The notes below the pieces were generated by a model. It had not been told where the DNA came from and did not search any database. It was given only the letters and a program-made list of their open reading frames with translations. A program made the translations under genes and the position numbers. A stretch of DNA of 64,000 nucleotides from Rhina ancylostomus (Eukaryota), in assembly GCA_030265395.1 (NCBI GenBank), contig JARFYF010000104.1, forward strand, positions 65,903,608 to 65,967,607, in the 5' to 3' direction. The stretch's first letter is position 1; the number at the start of each line of letters is the position of its first letter. Shown piece after piece: positions 32,195 through 46,830 of the stretch.

Positions 32195-33205
32195 TCATTC
32201 ATAGGGTCATACAGCATGGAAACAGCCCAGTGGCCCAACTGGGCCATGCCAGCCAAGACGCTCATCCAAGCTAATCCCACTTGCCCACGTTTGGCCCATA
32301 TCTTTCTAAGCCTTTCATCTCCATGTACCTGTCCAACTGTCTTTTAAAAGTTGTTATTGTACCTACCCCAACCACTTCCTCTGGCAGCTCATTCCATATA
32401 CACATCATCTGTGTAAAAAAAGTTGCCCCACTAGTTCCTATTAAATCTTTCCTCTCTCACCTTAACCCTATGCCCTTTAGTTCTTGATGCCCTAACCCTG
32501 GGTAAAAGACTGAGTGCATTCACCCTATCTATGTCCCTCATGATTTTATGCACCACTATAACATCGCTTATCTCCTACGCTCCAAGGAAAAAAAAGGTCC
32601 TCGTCTGCCCCACCTTTCCCTATCCTTGCAAGTCTTTCCTGTACTCTTTCCAGTTTAATAGCATCTTTCCTGGAGCAGGGTGACCAAAACTGAACACAAT
32701 ACTCCAAGTGTAGTATTACCAACATCTTGCAACATAACCTCTCAGCTTTTATACTCAATGTCCTGACTAATGAAGGCCAGCATACCAAAAGCCTTTATCA
32801 CTAACCTGTCTACCTGTGTCTCCACTTTCAGGGAAACCATGTAGCTGAACTGCAAGGTCCCTCTGTTCTACAACACTCCCAGGGCCCTACATTTACTGTG
32901 GAAGTTCTACTTGATTTGACTTTCCAAAATGCAACACGTTGCATTTATCTGAATTAAACTCCATTTGCTGCTCCTTGGTCCACTTACCCAGCTGATCAAG
33001 ATCCCCTGTAATTTTTGATAACCTTCTTCATTGTCAACGATACCAACTATTTTAGTGTCATCTGTAAACTTACTAACCATTGCTTGTACATTCTCACCCA
33101 AATCGTTGACATAGATAACAAACAACAAAGGGCCCAGCACTGACCCCTGGGGAACACCATTAGTCTAAGGCCTCTGGTCCTTAAAATAACCTTCCAGCAT
33201 TAGTC
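32195..33205 (-). mobile_element. CR1 RT plus 3'UTR, internally deleted
   Basis: GVPQGSVLGPLLFVIYVNDL...SKFTDDTKI; HLEYCVQFWSP. Confidence 0.92.
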
Positions 33206-38024: not shown

Positions 38025-38228
38025 AGGTATCAAGATGATAATGTAGTAAATTTGATCAGCAAGTTTGCTGACGCCACTAAGATTGGAGGTGTAGTGGACA
38101 GTGAGGAAGGCTTTCAAAGCTTGCAGAGGGATCTGAACCAAATGGAAGAACGGCCAGAAAATGGTAGATGGAATTTAATGCAGACAAGTGTGAGGTGTTG
38201 CATTTTGGAAGGACAAATCAAGGTAGGA
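38025..38228 (+). mobile_element. CR1 RT fragment running into a gap
   Basis: ISKFADATKIGGVVDSEEGFQSLQRDL; MEFNADKCEVLHFG. Confidence 0.92.
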
Positions 38229-41049
38229 NNNNNNNNNNNNNNNNNNNNNNNNNNNNNNNNNNNNNNNNNNNNNNNNNNNNNNNNNNNNNNNNNNNNNNNN
38301 NNNNNNNNNNNNNNNNNNNNNNNNNNNNNNNNNNNNNNNNNNNNNNNNNNNNNNNNNNNNNNNNNNNNNNNNNNNNNNNNNNNNNNNNNNNNNNNNNNNN
38401 NNNNNNNNNNNNNNNNNNNNNNNNNNNNNNNNNNNNNNNNNNNNNNNNNNNNNNNNNNNNNNNNNNNNNNNNNNNNNNNNNNNNNNNNNNNNNNNNNNNN
38501 NNNNNNNNNNNNNNNNNNNNNNNNNNNNNNNNNNNNNNNNNNNNNNNNNNNNNNNNNNNNNNNNNNNNNNNNNNNNNNNNNNNNNNNNNNNNNNNNNNNN
38601 NNNNNNNNNNNNNNNNNNNNNNNNNNNNNNNNNNNNNNNNNNNNNNNNNNNNNNNNNNNNNNNNNNNNNNNNNNNNNNNNNNNNNNNNNNNNNNNNNNNN
38701 NNNNNNNNNNNNNNNNNNNNNNNNNNNNNNNNNNNNTCTGAATATCAAAGAGTTGGTATCTGTACTGAACTTTAGTGCCGTGATACTAGGAACTGTGAAG
38801 GCCATGTTTCAGCATTTCTTTCAGAGTGTAAAATACACTCACTCTGTTGGACTCTTTTTTTTAAAGACTAATTTCCTGCTTTATTGAGAGGCCACAAGTT
38901 GCCCTTTGTTCTAAATATCATGGATTTTCTTGCACTAATATTTTACTGCTCTAAAAAAATTGAGCAATCTAGCTTCCAGGCAAATGAGTTTATTAAAAAG
39001 ATTTAAACAAGTAAAAAATAGAGCATGATGAGAATAGGCTACAGGTTGCAATAAAGCCTATAATGTTCTGTGAGCGTGAATTATATTTTGTTCTTAAAGA
39101 TATACAATACTGAAGACTTGAGAGACATTTGTGCTTATTGCTTGCTACCATTCACATCATAGTGCTGTTGCTGGCTCTCACACCGCTTGAAGCTCTTTCT
39201 GGAGAGAACAGTATGACAGCTGTGTCATGATATCTTTCACATGTGTGAAAAACCAGGAAGGCACAAATTCTGCAGAAACAAATTTGAATGAATTCCTTTA
39301 GAGAAGTTTTGGGAATGCCCAGTGAGGTCTGGTTCTTAATGGTTTATATTCAGTCTGTTCTGGAAAGCATCTCACGATAAGAGCTATCAAGAAATATTCA
39401 ACTGATGTTCTTGTTTTCATCTCAATACAGTTAATTACGACATTCCAGAGGTGATATCATCACCAACATTTAGAATAAGAGAATGCAATATATTTATAAA
39501 TTGCTAATGATAGTGAGGTTAAAATAAGTTTTTGTAAATATTTCCATACGCCCTTAGGCCTCCTACTCTTGTATTATGGTGGCTGATAAACTTAATCCTG
39601 GCAGATAATTTCTTATTGTGTACAAGATGAGCAGAGAAAATTTTCAAAGTTAATTCAGATGTTAACCATTAGTGGTAGTTTGATGTTATGGTCAAAACCA
39701 ACAGCTTTCAGCAGTTATATGACGCGTGTCATTGGCTGAAGAGTCTGCCTTAAATCAGATGATTGTAAGCTCAAGATCTAAATAAAAAATTAGAATCTAT
39801 GACACAAAAGGAGGCCATTTAGCCCATCCAGTCTTTGTTGGTCACACGTTAAGTTGACCATCAGTCCAGAATTGAAGGTACACTACATTGTTGGAAATGC
39901 CATTCTGTAATATTATACGTTAAACTGAGCAGGAAGTAAAGGAATATAAAGGTAGAAGCCCTGATAAAAGAGATGCAGTGTTGGAAGTCCATGGAGTTTA
40001 AACAGGGAAGTAGTAAAAATTTAAAATGTAAAAAATATTTTAAAGAACTAATCCAGGGGCAGAATTATAGGCCTGTCAGGCAGGAATAGTAATGTGACTG
40101 TAAGCTGGGAGAATATGGTGCATGTAACGTTAAGGCAAACCAATGGAGAGATTTGAATTTGAGGAATGCGTTTTTGAAGTCAGTTTAATGCAGGGAGCCA
40201 ATGAAGTTGGAAAAGAACAGGATGATGGGCATGTGTCACTGTGTGAGAAGATCCAAGCTACAATATTCCAGACTAATTTAAGCTGATGACTGGAGTTGAG
40301 TATGAAGCTAAAATAGGATAAAATTTAATTCCCTGAATATGAAAGTCCCATATGGCATTCAATAATTTTACATTTGAGTGCATGCACTTTAGGTCCAAAT
40401 CTTACTCACTGTTTCTCTTTCGCACCTCTCTGTTCCATACATTTGAGGCGGATGAAATACTTCAAGCTTGGCTTCTGTGCAACAGTGTCTACAGTCTGGA
40501 GACATGACTAATGACTCTCTTGGTGTGTAATGGCAACGCTGCAAAGGATGGCTGAGACTACAAGCCAAAATGTCCTCCTTTTATACAAAAAAGTGTGAAT
40601 GATTCTGTTCCTTTGAAGAGTTTAATGGCTGTTAATCAAAATGTCATCTGAGTAAATTTTCCTCCAGGCAACAAAATCCAATTTCATTACTGGGTACTTA
40701 GGAAAACCATTTAATCACAAAGCATGGACTCTAAAACATCCTACATACTTAGTAAAATGCCAAAGAACCAGTTATCTGCTAAATGTATATAATGCTGTAT
40801 AGCTGAGCTGATTAGCTATAAGGTGCATGACTATTACGAGTATAGAAATGGAAAAAAAAACATTAACTTACTCACAGAGAAAGCATTACTTGGATTTTAA
40901 TACTGACTGCAAAATCAACCAATCCACAAGGTAACCTTAAATGGCCTGTTCACCCATTGATTAGATTCAGTTGTTACTTGATAGTTGCACTGCTTCTTAA
41001 AGTGATGCTTGTATTCATAGAATATCTCAGTATACTCTGCAGTCTTCAA

Positions 41050-41245
41050 GCCAATTAAGTACCTTTGGTCTGTAGGAAATGCAGCAACCAATTTGTACAC
41101 AGCATACTCCCACAAGCACTAATGAAATAGGGAACCAGATCATTTGTTTTACATTTTGGTAGCGGGATAAATGTTGGCCAGAGTTCCAATGAGAACTTCT
41201 TTGATCTTCTGGTCAGTGTTGTAGAATCCTCATGGATAATGTTGG
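41050..41245 (-). mobile_element. Deu-domain SINE relic (SacSINE1/AmnSINE1-like)
   Basis: gtaggaaatgcagcaaccaatttgtacacagcatactcccacaa...gggataaatgttggccag resembles the antisense Deu core as I recall it. Confidence 0.55.
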
Positions 41246-41389
41246 TAACATTTACTTTAGTAGTTTTGAATAACATTCTTTTGCTTGCTCTGTATCTGAC
41301 ATTAACTAATTTATTTTAAATGGATAAATGCAGCTGTTAAAATACCAAGTAAAGGAATGTGAACTGAATGTACTAAGATGGGATGAGAA

Positions 41390-41830
41390 AATCCAGCAAT
41401 AAGGATAGATTAGAGAAGCTGGGACTGTTCTGTTTGGAGGAGAAATGGCTAAGGGGGTATTTGATAGAAGTACAGAAAGTGATGATGGGTCTGGACAGAG
41501 TAGATAGTGGAAGGTTCTTCTCATTGATGGAGGGGTCAAGGATTAAAAGTCACTGGTATGAAAATAAAGGGGAAAAGGATTACTAGTGACATAATGACAA
41601 AGATTTTTATGCAGGGTGTTTGGAATCTGCAATGCACTGTCCCTGGATGTGGTGGAGGCAGGTTCCATTCTAGCTTTCAGGAGAGATTTAGATAAATATA
41701 TGGTGAAGAAGTATTTGTAAGACTATGGAGAAAAGACCAAGGTGGTGGAACTAGAGTGTTACTCTGGGTGATAATTGACACAGAACTGATGGGACAATTG
41801 TCGTCCTTCTGTGCTATAACTATTCCATGT
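41390..41830 (+). mobile_element. CR1 3' fragment
   Basis: DRLEKLGLFCLEEKWLRGYLIEVQKVMMGLDRVD; 3'UTR ending ccttctgtgctataactattccatg. Confidence 0.85.
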
Positions 41831-41869
41831 GCCGTGAACTGCTAGTATCAACGACACTTATTTATCAGG

Positions 41870-42393
41870 TGTTATGAGAAAGGTTCTTTTGGGATCTTAA
41901 AGGTAAAAGGTATCTGGACACACAGTCTTTGTACTTCAAAAGGAGGATTTTATTCACAAAGACTGACACGGGAGCAGAATGTGAAGGAACAGATGCACAC
42001 TCGCATTAGGATAATCGCGAAACGCGGGGAGCGTCGCAACAGGGGTGAAGGACACACACGCTCAAACATACACACACACGCACACAAGCGCGCGCGCGCA
42101 CGCACGCAACGAACTGGTATAAGTAATCACAGAACAAACAAAATACATTTTCTGGATGCCCCCCCCCTCCGAAACGGGACAAATAACAACTCTATGCTAC
42201 TGCAAATCGACTCAGGACGCTCCAAGACCCCTGTGGAAGTGCACCTCTCACCTGTGGTTTCGACCCCAGCAGCAATCGGAAAAGACGGCGAGCTGCTCAC
42301 GTGTATCATATTTTATAGGGTTGTAGCGGGGTGGAGCCTGCTCAGGTGAGACAAGCCAATGATTCAGGTTCAAGAACAAAGGTGGGTTATGGG
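41870..42393 (-). repeat. ERV 3' LTR, distal part (partial U3, R, U5), minus orientation
   Basis: Minus strand has TATAAAA (42311-42317), AATAAA (41949-41954) and ends ...cataaCA; 42176-42393 is a direct repeat of 45424-45633 (roughly 85-90% by eye). Confidence 0.88.
42052..42108. repeat. Alternating purine-pyrimidine (CA)n/(CG)n tract within the LTR
   Basis: acacacacgc...cacacacacgcacacaagcgcgcgcgcgcacgcacgca. Confidence 0.9.
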
Positions 42394-43850
42394 TGGTACA
42401 TCGCGGACTGGGCCGAATCCGGTCCAGAAGGAGTCAGACGCCTCCACTAACAGGTTATGTCCTATCCCCAGTCTCAGGTCCCACCCCGGACATACCAGAG
42501 ATCAAGACCTTTCCCCTATGCTGGGGCCAACCGTTCGACTCCCTCAACCCTGAACAGAAGCTGCACGCCTGGTTCACGGACGGCTCCAGCCGCTGGAAAA
42601 ACAGGAAGCAACATTGGAAAGCTGCGGCACTTCATCCCGCCACGCAGAAAAAATAACAAAAGAGGGAGCGGGAGGATCGAGTCACTTGACTGAGCTCGCG
42701 ACGGTAGCACTCACTTTACGGGACACCACCGGGCCAGTCCACATCTATACCGACTCTTGAGCAGTGGCCAAGGGTATGGCGGTGTGGATGGCACGGTGGC
42801 ACGAGACGGGGTGGGAAATTCACGGGCGACCCCTCTGGGGAGAGGAACATACTGGTGCTACATCTGGGACCAAGTTGCCCAGAGACAGATATCAGTCCAC
42901 CACATGGATGCTCATACCCACAAGAATACTCAGGAGGCCATATATAATGCCGTTATGGACCAGGCTTCCCAGATATGCTACACCACTGTCACCCTGGAGG
43001 AACCCGCCCTCAGCGCCCTCGCCGCATAGGCACACTGTAAGACCGGTCACCTCGGGGCTGAAGGTACACGGGGCTGAGAAGAGCAGTTTGGGGTTGCCCT
43101 TACGGTCGATCAGTGTAAAACAACTGTCACAAATTGCCCCACCTGCCAGCAGGTAAAACCACGAGACTGGCCAGCAGGGCCACCGGGTCATATTCCCAGG
43201 TGGCACGGGAGCGTGTCCCGTATGGCAAATAGACTATATCGGACTTCTCCCACGCCACAATAAAAAACAGTACGCTCTTATGATGGTGGATACATACTCG
43301 GGTATCCTTGTGGCAGTGCCGTGTGAGAGGGCCGATCAGAACAGTACCATCAAAGGATTGCAGCACCTCTCCTCCATCTATGAAGACCCATGGGAGGTGC
43401 AATCCAACCAAGGCTCACATTTCACGGAGGCTAAGGTACAAAACTCGGAGGTGCAGGCGGGGATCTCGTGGCTGTTCCATATCCCCTACCATCCCCAGGC
43501 ATCCGGCCTGATAGAACGAAACAACAGCCTGCTGAAAGAAACCATACGCACGGTGACGCCCTCCCGCAAATTGCAGTGGTGGTTGGGTGTGCTGCAGCAG
43601 GCCGTCGGTCAGCTCAACACATGGCCCACTGGCCAAGGGGGGTTCCCCATTATCCTGCCATCCCCACTGGCCGCCACCCAACCTGCGAGATCCCGAACCC
43701 CATGAGACTGAGGACTCCGGGAGATTCTGGGTCCGACAGCAACGGGGTCCCCCTCAGAAGGGGGAAATCGTCGCGCGGGGCCCCAGGAACGCTCGTTGGG
43801 TTGTGATCCCAGGTCAAACTAACATCTCCTGCCTTCATTGACAAAACCTG
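42394..43850 (+). pseudogene. pol: Retroviral pol remnant: tether end, RNase H, integrase
   Basis: WYIADWAESGPEGVRRLH; WGQPFDSL...AWFTDGSSR...WKAAALHP; EL; HIYTDS*AVAKG; HMDAH; zinc finger HCKTGH...CPTC; WQIDYIG; VDTYSG; QSNQGSHFT; HIPYHPQASGLIERNNSLLK. Several stops and frameshifts. Confidence 0.93.
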
Positions 43851-43866
43851 ATCCGCCAAGAATGAG

Positions 43867-43899
43867 TTTCTCCCTCCCCCCAACCCTACAGGACGATGG
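43867..43899 (+). promoter_or_regulatory. Probable env splice acceptor and start context
   Basis: Polypyrimidine tract tttctccctccccccaacccta, then CAG (43889-43891), then ATG at 43896 in the context acgATGG. Confidence 0.6.
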
Positions 43900-45117
43900 C
43901 GCTACTCCTCCTCCTCGCTGTGATGATCGGCATCAGAGAGTCTACGAACACCTTCCTCCGCGTCGCGTACGAATTCGCCAACACTTCCAATCAGTCAGAC
44001 TGCTGGATCTGCCTCCAAAGCCCAGCACACGCCGGAGAAGCTTTCCCACTTACAGCGATTCCCTTCGATGATCTCCAAATGAACTGCCTACACAGACTTG
44101 TTATGCTTGTCGGGTTCAGTCTATCAGTTTGGTGGGGGGGGGCGGTAATCCCCCACCACTCTCCTATCCATTACAGAATATTTCTTCCAGTGATTCCCGA
44201 TGGGGTGGGTGCTTCGGAAGCTGGAATTTCCCTTCTTACAATTTGAGCTCAACCCGAGTCCCGACCCTCAGAATGACCCCGCAGCCATCCAGTCGGCCGA
44301 GAGAATGTTGGTGCAGACTCCAAAACGACCACACTTCCACTTTTCCAGTCGGCTACAGTGATTGCGAGAGCAACTGGTACCTAGGGGCCACAGTGGCCAC
44401 CGTCAGAGGTGCGGCCAAGCTGGGAGCTCCCTGGACCCTGAATGGCATCCACTGGGTCTGCGGCAATGTGCCTACCCCTGGCTCCCCACGAGCTGGTACG
44501 GTTGCTGCTTCCCAGCGTTTGTAGTGTCCTATATCCACGCACTCGATGACCTCGGGGAGCACGAAGCATACAGCGGCCACCCACACAGAAGATCCATCAC
44601 AGCATTGTAAAGGTTCTGGATGATTTCTTTTCCCATGTATGGCACAGCTCGACTGTCCAGTGAAGTCATAAGGATGACCAGTGCGCTCCAGACCATGGCT
44701 GACGAAACCAAAATGTCACTGCAACGTACCAGGTATGCCCTGACCCAGTCAACAGTGGAGCTGGCTGCCGTCAGGCTGATGGCCCTTCAGAACAGGATGA
44801 CCGTGGACTACTTGCTCGCTGCAGAAGGTGGAACCTGTGCAATGGTTGGGAAGGAGTGCTGCACCTGTATCCCAGATGCATCCAGCAACATCACGAACCT
44901 GGCTGCTCACATTGGGGACTCGGTAACTAAAATTCAAAAGGCAAGAGGCCAGCTCCTCCAGCAAGACACCTCATGGGGAAACATGCCGTTTGGGTCTCTG
45001 GGGGGATGGTGGGCAACTATCGCCCATTGGGCCACCACCCTCATTTTAGTCGTAATAGCGATCTGCATTTTGTGCTGTGCATGCCAACTTATTAGAACCA
45101 CTTCTGCCTTCCACTAA
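43896..45117 (+). pseudogene. env: Retroviral env remnant, gamma-type
   Basis: Signal peptide MALLLLLAVMIG; CWIC; WVCG...AYPWLPTSWYGCC; HRR/SI cleavage-like site; ISD LQNRMTVDYLLAAEGGTC; CX6CC (CAMVGKECC); TM helix TLILVVIAICILCC. Frameshifts in SU and a stop at 44608-44610. Confidence 0.93.
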
Positions 45118-45198
45118 GCACTGCGCACTGACAAGTTTTTTTCTCTTCTGTTAGCTGAGTTGTTGCTATCACCATGATGAGCAATTGGTATAGCTTCT

Positions 45199-45209
45199 GA
45201 GGGGTAGAA
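45199..45209 (+). promoter_or_regulatory. Polypurine tract
   Basis: gaggggtagaa immediately precedes the LTR start TGTAGTATG at 45210. Confidence 0.8.
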
Positions 45210-45323
45210 TGTAGTATGAAAGGCCAGGGGTCAGATGACAGAGACAACACTACTGACCCCCATGTTCAGATGATAGCATTGCCTGACGGGTTGGAAGCTA
45301 TACCACTGTCAATCAAGGGTCCG
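45210..45323 (+). repeat. ERV 3' LTR U3 start, plus orientation, cut by a gap
   Basis: Inverted copy of 45675-45786, about 9 mismatches in 112 bp by eye. Confidence 0.9.
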
Positions 45324-45423
45324 NNNNNNNNNNNNNNNNNNNNNNNNNNNNNNNNNNNNNNNNNNNNNNNNNNNNNNNNNNNNNNNNNNNNNNNNNNNNN
45401 NNNNNNNNNNNNNNNNNNNNNNN

Positions 45424-45786
45424 GGGACAAACAACGGCTCTACACTACTGGGAATCTACTCAGGACGGTCCTAGACCCCTGTGGAAGTGCACCCTCTCAC
45501 CTCTGGTCTCGACCCCAGCAGCAATCAGAAAAGAGGGCAAGCTGCCCACATGTACCATCTTTTATAGGGGTGGAGCCCGCTCAGGTGAGACAACCCAATG
45601 ATTCAGGGTCAAGAACAAAGGTGTGTTAATGGGCCAATCCTCAGGTGTATTCTTTGATGGGTGGGGCGGAGCCAGACCCTTGATTGACAGTGGTATAGCT
45701 TCCGACCTGCTAGGCAGTACTATTATCTGACCATGGGGGTAAGTAGTGTTGTCTCTGTCATCTGACCCCTGGCCTTTCATACTACA
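45424..45786 (-). repeat. ERV 5' LTR (U3 and start of R), minus orientation
   Basis: Minus strand starts TGTAGTATG; GC box ggggcggag at about 45663-45671, CCAAT motifs, TATAAAA at 45560-45566. Confidence 0.9.
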
Positions 45787-46544
45787 TCAGGTAGTAGGAT
45801 ATGTATTACTGATGGAAAATGATTGGAGACTCTCGCAAACCCAATTTGCCTATATGCGTTGCTTACAATCAGCTACCCTCTTCCCTTAGAGAGAGACTGG
45901 AATAATTTTGTGGCTGTGCACTCACAGAAGTGAACCTCACCAGTATGTATCTGGAATGTGGAAAACATATGATTTTCCATGTGTCCATGCCCAAAATTCT
46001 AATAAGTATTGTGCCTATGCAAAGCTCCTTGTCAGGAACAAAACCAAAATGAGTCCTAATATAAATTGGAGATTGCATTCCACATTACTGCCATGTGTGC
46101 CTTTCTTTTGGAAATCAGGCTTAGTTCATATTTGTACTGTTTGTTCTGACCTTGTCATTGTGGCTGGCCTGCAACATGTTCTTGCTGTGTTAATCTAAGA
46201 ACGTTTGGTTTCTTCCAAGTTGTTGTTGATATAGAGATTCCCTATCATATTGTCTGGTCATTTAAAAAAGTATGTATATAAGCAGAAAAAGCACAAGACT
46301 CACTGAATATTTGAAATATATGGTGGGATTACCAAGATCTGTGTCGAAGATAATTGTGGATATGGCAAGCAATTGGTCATTGGTTCCCTAGAGGGGTGAA
46401 ATCAGCTAGATTCCTGTCTTTGCTACATGCAAGATTGAGTTCAGATGTAATCCAGTCCTCTCTAAGTTCAGGAATGAAATTGATGACCTGGGAATGACAC
46501 TGACTGCTCTGGTTTTATGCCAATAAATGATCAAAATAAATGAA

Positions 46545-46830
46545 GAAAAAATTTGCATTTGTATAGCACATTTTATAATTTTAAGACAACTCAAAGCATA
46601 ATACAGACAATTAAATACACTTTTATGACCTAATAGCTGTTGTAACATATGGAAATAAGGCAGTCTTTCTATTCACAGCAGATGTCACAAAAAAATGGAA
46701 TAATTTTTAAAAATAAATATAGTTTACTTTAGGTCTTGCCTGAGGGACAAGCATCAACTAGGCCTTTGTGATTTGCACCATGGGACATTCCATTTGCAAC
46801 TTGAAGTGCTGACTCTTCTCAAACAGTGCA
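46545..46830 (-). mobile_element. Deu-type SINE relic
   Basis: aatttgcatttgtatagcacattt (antisense tail) followed by a degenerate core similar to 41050-41245; a similar tail occurs on the plus strand at 48720-48790. Confidence 0.45.

Follow-up and report, generated by a model that had tools for sequence, protein, structure and literature searches.

The 64-kb stretch of DNA analysed here (the window) very probably contains, at positions 41870-45786, a dead class III endogenous retrovirus (ERV) of the ERV-L/S type, one of many copies of its family. It carries a gamma-type env, is flanked by a 5-bp target-site duplication (TSD), and resides in a genome that is likely that of a ray; an inversion of its pol-env block likely followed the insertion. 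As it lies, the locus of this element, a member of what is here termed the Rhina family, makes no protein, and its long terminal repeats (LTRs) could at most represent putative cis-elements.

The element boundaries are confirmed by an empty site found in the sequencing runs of two other organisms. A 5-bp TSD had been proposed in an earlier sequence-only reading, and TCAGG indeed stands on both sides (41865..41869 and 45787..45791), bracketing the TG...CA (TGT...ACA) ends of the element. Contigs, and contigs only, of four of the 13 runs listed (X1-X4, representing four organisms) were compared over 41000-46600, and one contig each in X3 and X4 links 41863 directly to 45786, leaving out 3922 nt, which corresponds to the element as assembled, with its internal gap of 100 N, plus one TSD copy. 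Because these contigs skip the element, and because exact 5-bp flanking repeats were also present at six of eight paralogous LTR loci, the duplication is not due to chance, and the locus exhibits the LTR ends, the TSD, and the pre-insertion empty site of a provirus. The flanks differ from those of the two empty-site runs at 103/1538 and 102/1522 letters (6.7%). In X2, contigs from both flanks enter the LTR ends by 26 and 29 letters at the same places as in X1, with 44/1735 flank differences (2.5%) and no empty-site joint listed. The insertion is absent in organisms C and D, and it likely is common to the organism of X2 (organism B), although overlaps of 26 and 29 letters fall below the 31-letter bar; it would then probably predate the split from organism B. 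Contigs of the family piled up on the element even in the empty-site runs X3 and X4, which places the family in at least four related organisms. No RNA run was among the runs listed for the locus. Absolute dating was discarded, as the shark rate of 2.2e-10 from PMC4422223 yields ~245 Myr for the LTR distance given below, which is difficult to reconcile with flanks only 6.7% away from the empty-site organisms.

The host-facing ends of the element are those of a provirus on the minus strand, because whole paralogous LTRs (626-765 nt) begin as the sequence read leftwards from 45786 and finish as the sequence ending at 41870. The 5' LTR is represented by its positions 1-363 (45786-45424, with the TGT start at 45786), and the 3' LTR, without its first ~153 nt, runs from position ~154 to its end (42393-41870, finishing with ...ACA at 41870), collinear with whole paralogous LTRs such as those of L021 and L046. 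TATA boxes (45561-45566 and 42312-42317) and an AATAAA signal (41949-41954) were seen in these outer repeats on the minus strand only. In between, the RNase H-integrase part of pol, env, the polypurine tract (PPT; 45199..45209), whose motif also precedes the 3' LTR of paralogs, and the first 114 nt of an LTR, i.e. the start of its U3 region (45210..45323), all lie on the plus strand. The latter piece stops at the gap and is 92% identical (103/112) to the minus-strand LTR start. The strand switches at 42393..42394, between LTR (minus) and pol (plus), with one base shared. Breakpoints in pol and U3 fit an inversion, because the inner U3 start (LTR 1-114) is the part that the left LTR, which resumes at ~154, is without. 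The 100 N of the gap (45324..45423) probably are a nominal length. Paralog L025 has ~3.4 kb between its primer site and the matching pol position, so that gag, protease and reverse transcriptase (RT) may sit in the gap and need not have been deleted. The second breakpoint likely falls inside the gap, which possibly also hides the primer-binding site (PBS), gag, protease and RT. The motifs, env and TSD of the sequence-only layout thus stood, but the opposite-strand LTRs with the inversion, the gap, and the size of the family had been overlooked. A 113-nt inverted repeat at 45209/45675 was considered as an LTR-internal hairpin or a miniature inverted-repeat transposable element and dismissed, being simply the two LTR starts in opposite orientation. 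The left LTR also includes a (CA)n/(CG)n microsatellite (42059-42116), and paralogous LTRs, with their variable length, have similar simple repeats. Elsewhere in the genome, on a short contig (L006:191-2506), a minus-strand pol-env stands head-to-head with a second inter-gene/env piece on the plus strand, which is either another inverted arrangement or an assembly fold-back.

We propose that the provirus inserted on the minus strand with a 5-bp duplication, as one of a family that would have spread in a burst, probably through envelope-mediated reinfection because many copies keep env. The presence of both U3 starts and the position of the PPT within the flipped block suggest that the inversion would have come later than the completion of reverse transcription, and its likely cause would be break repair involving a microhomology of about one base.

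Several observations weigh against this scenario. The second inversion breakpoint was not found: a pattern for the reciprocal junction gave nine matches versus four for the control, none of them in family context. The left and right LTRs differ at 32/320 sites (10%; Kimura two-parameter distance, K2P, 0.108), or by 8.4% when CpG transitions are left out, and the 10% is larger than the 6.7% by which the flanks differ from the empty-site organisms. Moreover, the two LTRs were not resolved as sisters in a star-like 15-row LTR tree, which has no supported branch. The excess divergence is explicable by CpG decay, sampling error, and lineage sorting. It may instead reflect a chimera, in which part of another provirus was inserted or recombined, in the opposite orientation, into the first one, with no inversion in place; the divergence is indeed as large as among paralogs, and the left LTR ranks with the most diverged rows, with 19 differences from the column majority versus 10 for the right one. 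We nevertheless regard such a chimera as quite unlikely, as the locus has a single TSD and a single empty site, the U3 piece beside the PPT complements what the left LTR is without, and the 25 non-CpG differences over 298 sites are within sampling error of 6.7% (we estimate ~20 expected, with a standard deviation of ~4); the LTR tree, having no supported branch, speaks neither for nor against a chimera. Even less probable is an ordinary collinear provirus whose opposite orientation is an artefact of assembly. The assembly is admittedly fragmented (65,984 contigs) and leaves a gap within the element, and the junction at 42393/42394 is unique among 40 scored matches, being spanned by none of the other 39. 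However, a separately assembled X1 contig (Logan) covering 42351-42550 (200 nt, with 44 and ~156 letters on either side) crosses the junction with no differences and at a depth of 11.3, as compared to 6.4-6.7 in the flanks, and the junction is embedded in gap-free sequence ~2.9 kb from the gap. This contig counts against assembler error, although X1, likewise compared by contigs only, may be the assembly's own sample and so would not represent a second individual.

The flipped block begins with the 3' part of pol (42394..43830, plus strand), comprising the end of the connection domain, RNase H, and integrase. The pol motifs listed in the sequence-only reading (WYI..GPEG..RLH, WG.PFD..AWFTDGS, WKAAALHP, YTDS.AVA.G, WQIDYIG, and HIPYHPQASGLIER) were all recovered in place, distributed over three frames with frameshifts and in-frame stops. 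Two of ten translated pieces passed the curated Pfam cut-offs, and the integrase core (frame 43202-43612) matched rve with E=1.7e-10. The integrase zinc finger, HX4HX28CX2C, is read across one in-frame stop, and at this locus the core has a residue other than Asp at its second catalytic position. The spacing within the core is X57 in the window as well as in Hemitrygon and caecilian rows, whereas it is X58 in Xenopus and mouse rows; Table 2 of PMC8278194 gives X56 for murine leukaemia virus (MLV) and DX58DX35E for the ERV-L/S reference. The best PDB matches of the integrase were foamy virus integrases. A search with two dUTPase domains yielded no match in the window and 39 further loci, while the mouse control was matched; no homolog of near length was retrieved with the integrase core, and the sole match in IMG/VR, of 13 residues, was spurious.

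Phylogenetic placement was based on quick searches, namely a 25-row RT-to-integrase tree (LG+G4), with rows hand-picked from 335 stored proteins and the integrase of the window and an RT piece of paralog L027 entered as separate partial rows, and a 63-row integrase tree. Class I rows were labelled by their YVDD motif, and the other reference labels were inferred from motifs and host names. In the RT-to-integrase tree, the family joined a protein of the stingray Hypanus with a support of 95 (Shimodaira-Hasegawa-like approximate likelihood ratio test, SH-aLRT), and then one of Hemitrygon (99), within a 17-row group (100) that includes a dUTPase-bearing multi-copy pol of mouse (from a cluster with a Mus musculus member, and regarded as MuERV-L-like) as well as a pol of X. 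tropicalis bearing the XtERV-S motifs. The integrase tree recovered the Hemitrygon link at 95, with weak deep support. Union with the five YVDD class I rows, the grouping set against class III membership in the sequence-only reading, was rejected by the approximately unbiased (AU) test (p-AU 2.5e-6), and by these comparisons pol is of class III, away from class I (gamma/epsilon). For further AU groups, chosen after the tree was seen, union was rejected with the Xenopus row (0.01) and with the Carcharodon row, but not with the mouse row (0.34) or the outlier P0055 (0.41). Within class III, the sequence comparisons make the L/S sub-branch the likely position. The class III pol of the white shark Carcharodon carcharias (P0254) groups at 100 with a killifish element and not with the ray clade, so elasmobranchs have at least two class III lineages; a cross-class transfer may have taken place.

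Downstream of pol, a short gamma-type env of 1222 nt (43896..45117, plus strand) is spread over several frames with in-frame stops. CWIC, the immunosuppressive domain (ISD), and CX6CC had been attributed to it beforehand and were all recovered. Behind a hydrophobic, signal-like N-terminus follow CWIC at residue 36, an ISD-like stretch, CX6CC, and a C-terminal hydrophobic anchor. Its transmembrane (TM) piece with ISD, CX6CC, and anchor (44611-45117) passed the curated cut-off for TLV_coat (E=9e-7), had matches of 0.93-0.94 among the TLV_coat clusters of the ESM Atlas, and matched the ectodomains of syncytin-1, MLV, and filovirus GP2 in the PDB, as expected of a gamma-type TM.

The family itself is decayed and has many copies, with own-genome counts being lower bounds that include related subfamilies. 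Scoring of 150 of 1493 integrase candidates and 150 of 955 TM candidates identified paralogs of up to 79% and 84% identity, respectively, and the 40 that were scored of 1074 LTR candidates, apart from the window itself, showed 86-90%. Env DNA was detected at 13 of 20 loci fetched at 9.9 kb, several of the misses having large gaps or being more distant. Paralog L025 retains the order LTR-PBS-gag-pro-RT-RNase H-integrase-env-PPT-LTR with a DTG protease and a YIDD RT (the latter also found in L028), all broken, whereas at the locus the part from PBS to RT is not visible because of the gap and the inner block is inverted. Gag possesses a motif resembling the major homology region (MHR), and no Cys-His box. 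PBS-like sites were found at four of 19 loci scanned: in L025, 18/18 positions match the 3' end plus CCA of the genome's own tRNA-Ser(TGA), and the three others have one to three mismatches. The paralogs hence combine a serine primer site, which is not visible at the locus, with a class I (gamma-type) env and no dUTPase, in line with the ERV-S-like profile suggested by the sequence-only reading. One further copy (L030:5253-9029) is internally deleted, its late RNase H, integrase, env, and LTR setting in no more than ~270 nt behind an LTR and primer site, and maybe represents a non-autonomous, env-keeping form. Four loci (L035-L038) are more divergent class III elements with 46-56% integrase identity and related PPT or pol motifs, pointing to further subfamilies.

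The affiliation of pol within class III has to be weighed against the snakehead retrovirus (SnRV) branch. Published class III ERVs of cartilaginous fish were mostly called SnRV-related (PMC4422223; bioRxiv 2021.11.23.469661), the sister relation to P0055 was not rejected, the 16-row group without P0055 had a support of only 82, and our quick trees were without named HERV-L, HERV-S, SnRV, and foamy rows, which likewise counts against an L/S assignment. Still, we consider an SnRV-like pol unlikely: HX4HX28CX2C and YIDD match the ERV-L/XtERV-S column in Table 2 of PMC8278194, the Hemitrygon relative scores 649-787 bits to Xenopus, mouse, and dUTPase-bearing rows versus 442 to P0055, and the family has a Ser primer site and a short, simple genome with no space for accessory genes. 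As for env, its 168-codon open TM piece might suggest a syncytin-like gene co-opted by the host. This is extremely improbable, as env at the locus is split over frames with stops, and none of the 150 scored TM matches (of 955 candidates) had a frame without stops that could accommodate an entire env, the one listed with a frame of 3089 codons crossing N gaps; among the other candidates, an intact copy may exist elsewhere.

Among 116 window frames of at least 72 aa outside the element, Pfam detected no host gene and one RT fragment (RVT_1). RT fragments of the type of long interspersed nuclear elements (LINEs) lie at 32910-33164 (minus) and 38025-38228 (plus), the second of which resembles the CR1-like LINE ends of sharks and rays. 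The nearest named proteins of the element were from the stingrays Hypanus sabinus and Hemitrygon akajei, then from bichir, turtles, seahorse, and amphibians. A cartilaginous-fish host, as assumed in the sequence-only reading, is hence plausible, and the host is probably a batoid, an assignment for which both stingray proteins are the sole basis.

Our findings add a large and probably uncatalogued family to the class III record in cartilaginous fish, and one more class III backbone with a class I envelope. The significance of this is modest, and nothing points to a new mechanism or a living gene. The novelty initially envisaged was overstated, since the combination of class III pol and class I env is already published, among others from humans and frogs (PMC4724089; PMC8278194; bioRxiv 2021.11.23.469661), and since clade III accounts for the majority of RT loci in six chondrichthyans (2843 versus 2018 of clade I; PMC11089739). 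An SnRV-like env-bearing lineage was described in the elephant shark (PMC4422223), and PMC6001957 places class III in its clade Huo; its entries for skate ERVs, four of five printed as truncated protein, appear by eye unlike the Rhina family. Literature searches, with subscription journals, Dfam, and Repbase outside their range, retrieved no paper on a ray ERV-L/S family. As the insertion apparently is common to one related organism and absent in two, loci of this kind could be scored for presence or absence to trace host phylogeny. The inversion, a curiosity of one locus, warns that LTR orientation can mislead annotation.

Among known elements, the family shares with HERV-S (HERVS/HERV18) a class III pol, a class I env, and the lack of a dUTPase at the 3' end of pol. 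HERV-S also has a Ser primer site. It belongs to another host class, however, and as the likeness is by description, either shared ancestry or convergence is possible. In the study of PMC4724089, every credible class III env was of class I. XtERV-S of Xenopus tropicalis (PMC8278194; case repeated in PMC10536682) combines an ERV-L-like gag-pol with a class I TM, and resembles the Rhina family in YIDD, HX4HX28CX2C, the Ser primer site, TGT...ACA LTRs of ~700 nt (705 bp in XtERV-S), the 5-bp TSD, ISD, CX6CC, and a CWIC near the N-terminus of the surface subunit (at 40-43, and at 36 in the window). In contrast, amino acid identity to X. tropicalis P0204, taken as XtERV-S-like by its DYRGLN and DTG motifs, is only ~40%, the sister relation is rejected as stated, the integrase spacing is D-X57 instead of D-X58, and, unlike in XtERV-S, all copies seen are decayed. 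Gamma-type env ERVs were furthermore reported from six cartilaginous fish (bioRxiv 10.1101/2021.11.23.469661), and the same screen yielded ERV-SA.a-Ppe, which also unites class III pol with class I env but was called SnRV-related there. 'Ppe', which the main text leaves unexpanded, probably denotes the sawfish Pristis pectinata, and, compared by description only, the element may be the same family, a relative, or unrelated.

The nearest named sequences are stingray ERV proteins annotated merely as uncharacterized (Hypanus sabinus LOC132402424 and LOC132395025; the gag-pol-like P0190 of Hemitrygon akajei), with 76% identity over 79 aa of integrase and 59% in the RNase H region. Hemitrygon shares the lack of dUTPase and the D-X57 spacing. 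We would only tentatively, and with considerable doubt, extend this to a clade of class III retroviruses spread across the rays, which would have an env, a Ser primer, and no dUTPase, and would comprise the window, Hypanus, and Hemitrygon elements, apart from XtERV-S and the white-shark class III element, by which the HERV-S body plan would exist in cartilaginous fish and the possession of env would maybe be ancestral in ERV-L/S. With ERV-L (HERV-L, MuERV-L), the family has in common the pol motifs, the 5-bp TSD, and a gag that has an MHR-like motif and lacks a Cys-His box. However, ERV-L usually carries a dUTPase after integrase and no env, whereas the Rhina family has an env and no dUTPase, and for this reason it is not ERV-L proper; instead, the locus works like any decayed simple provirus, with the profile of HERV-S and XtERV-S.

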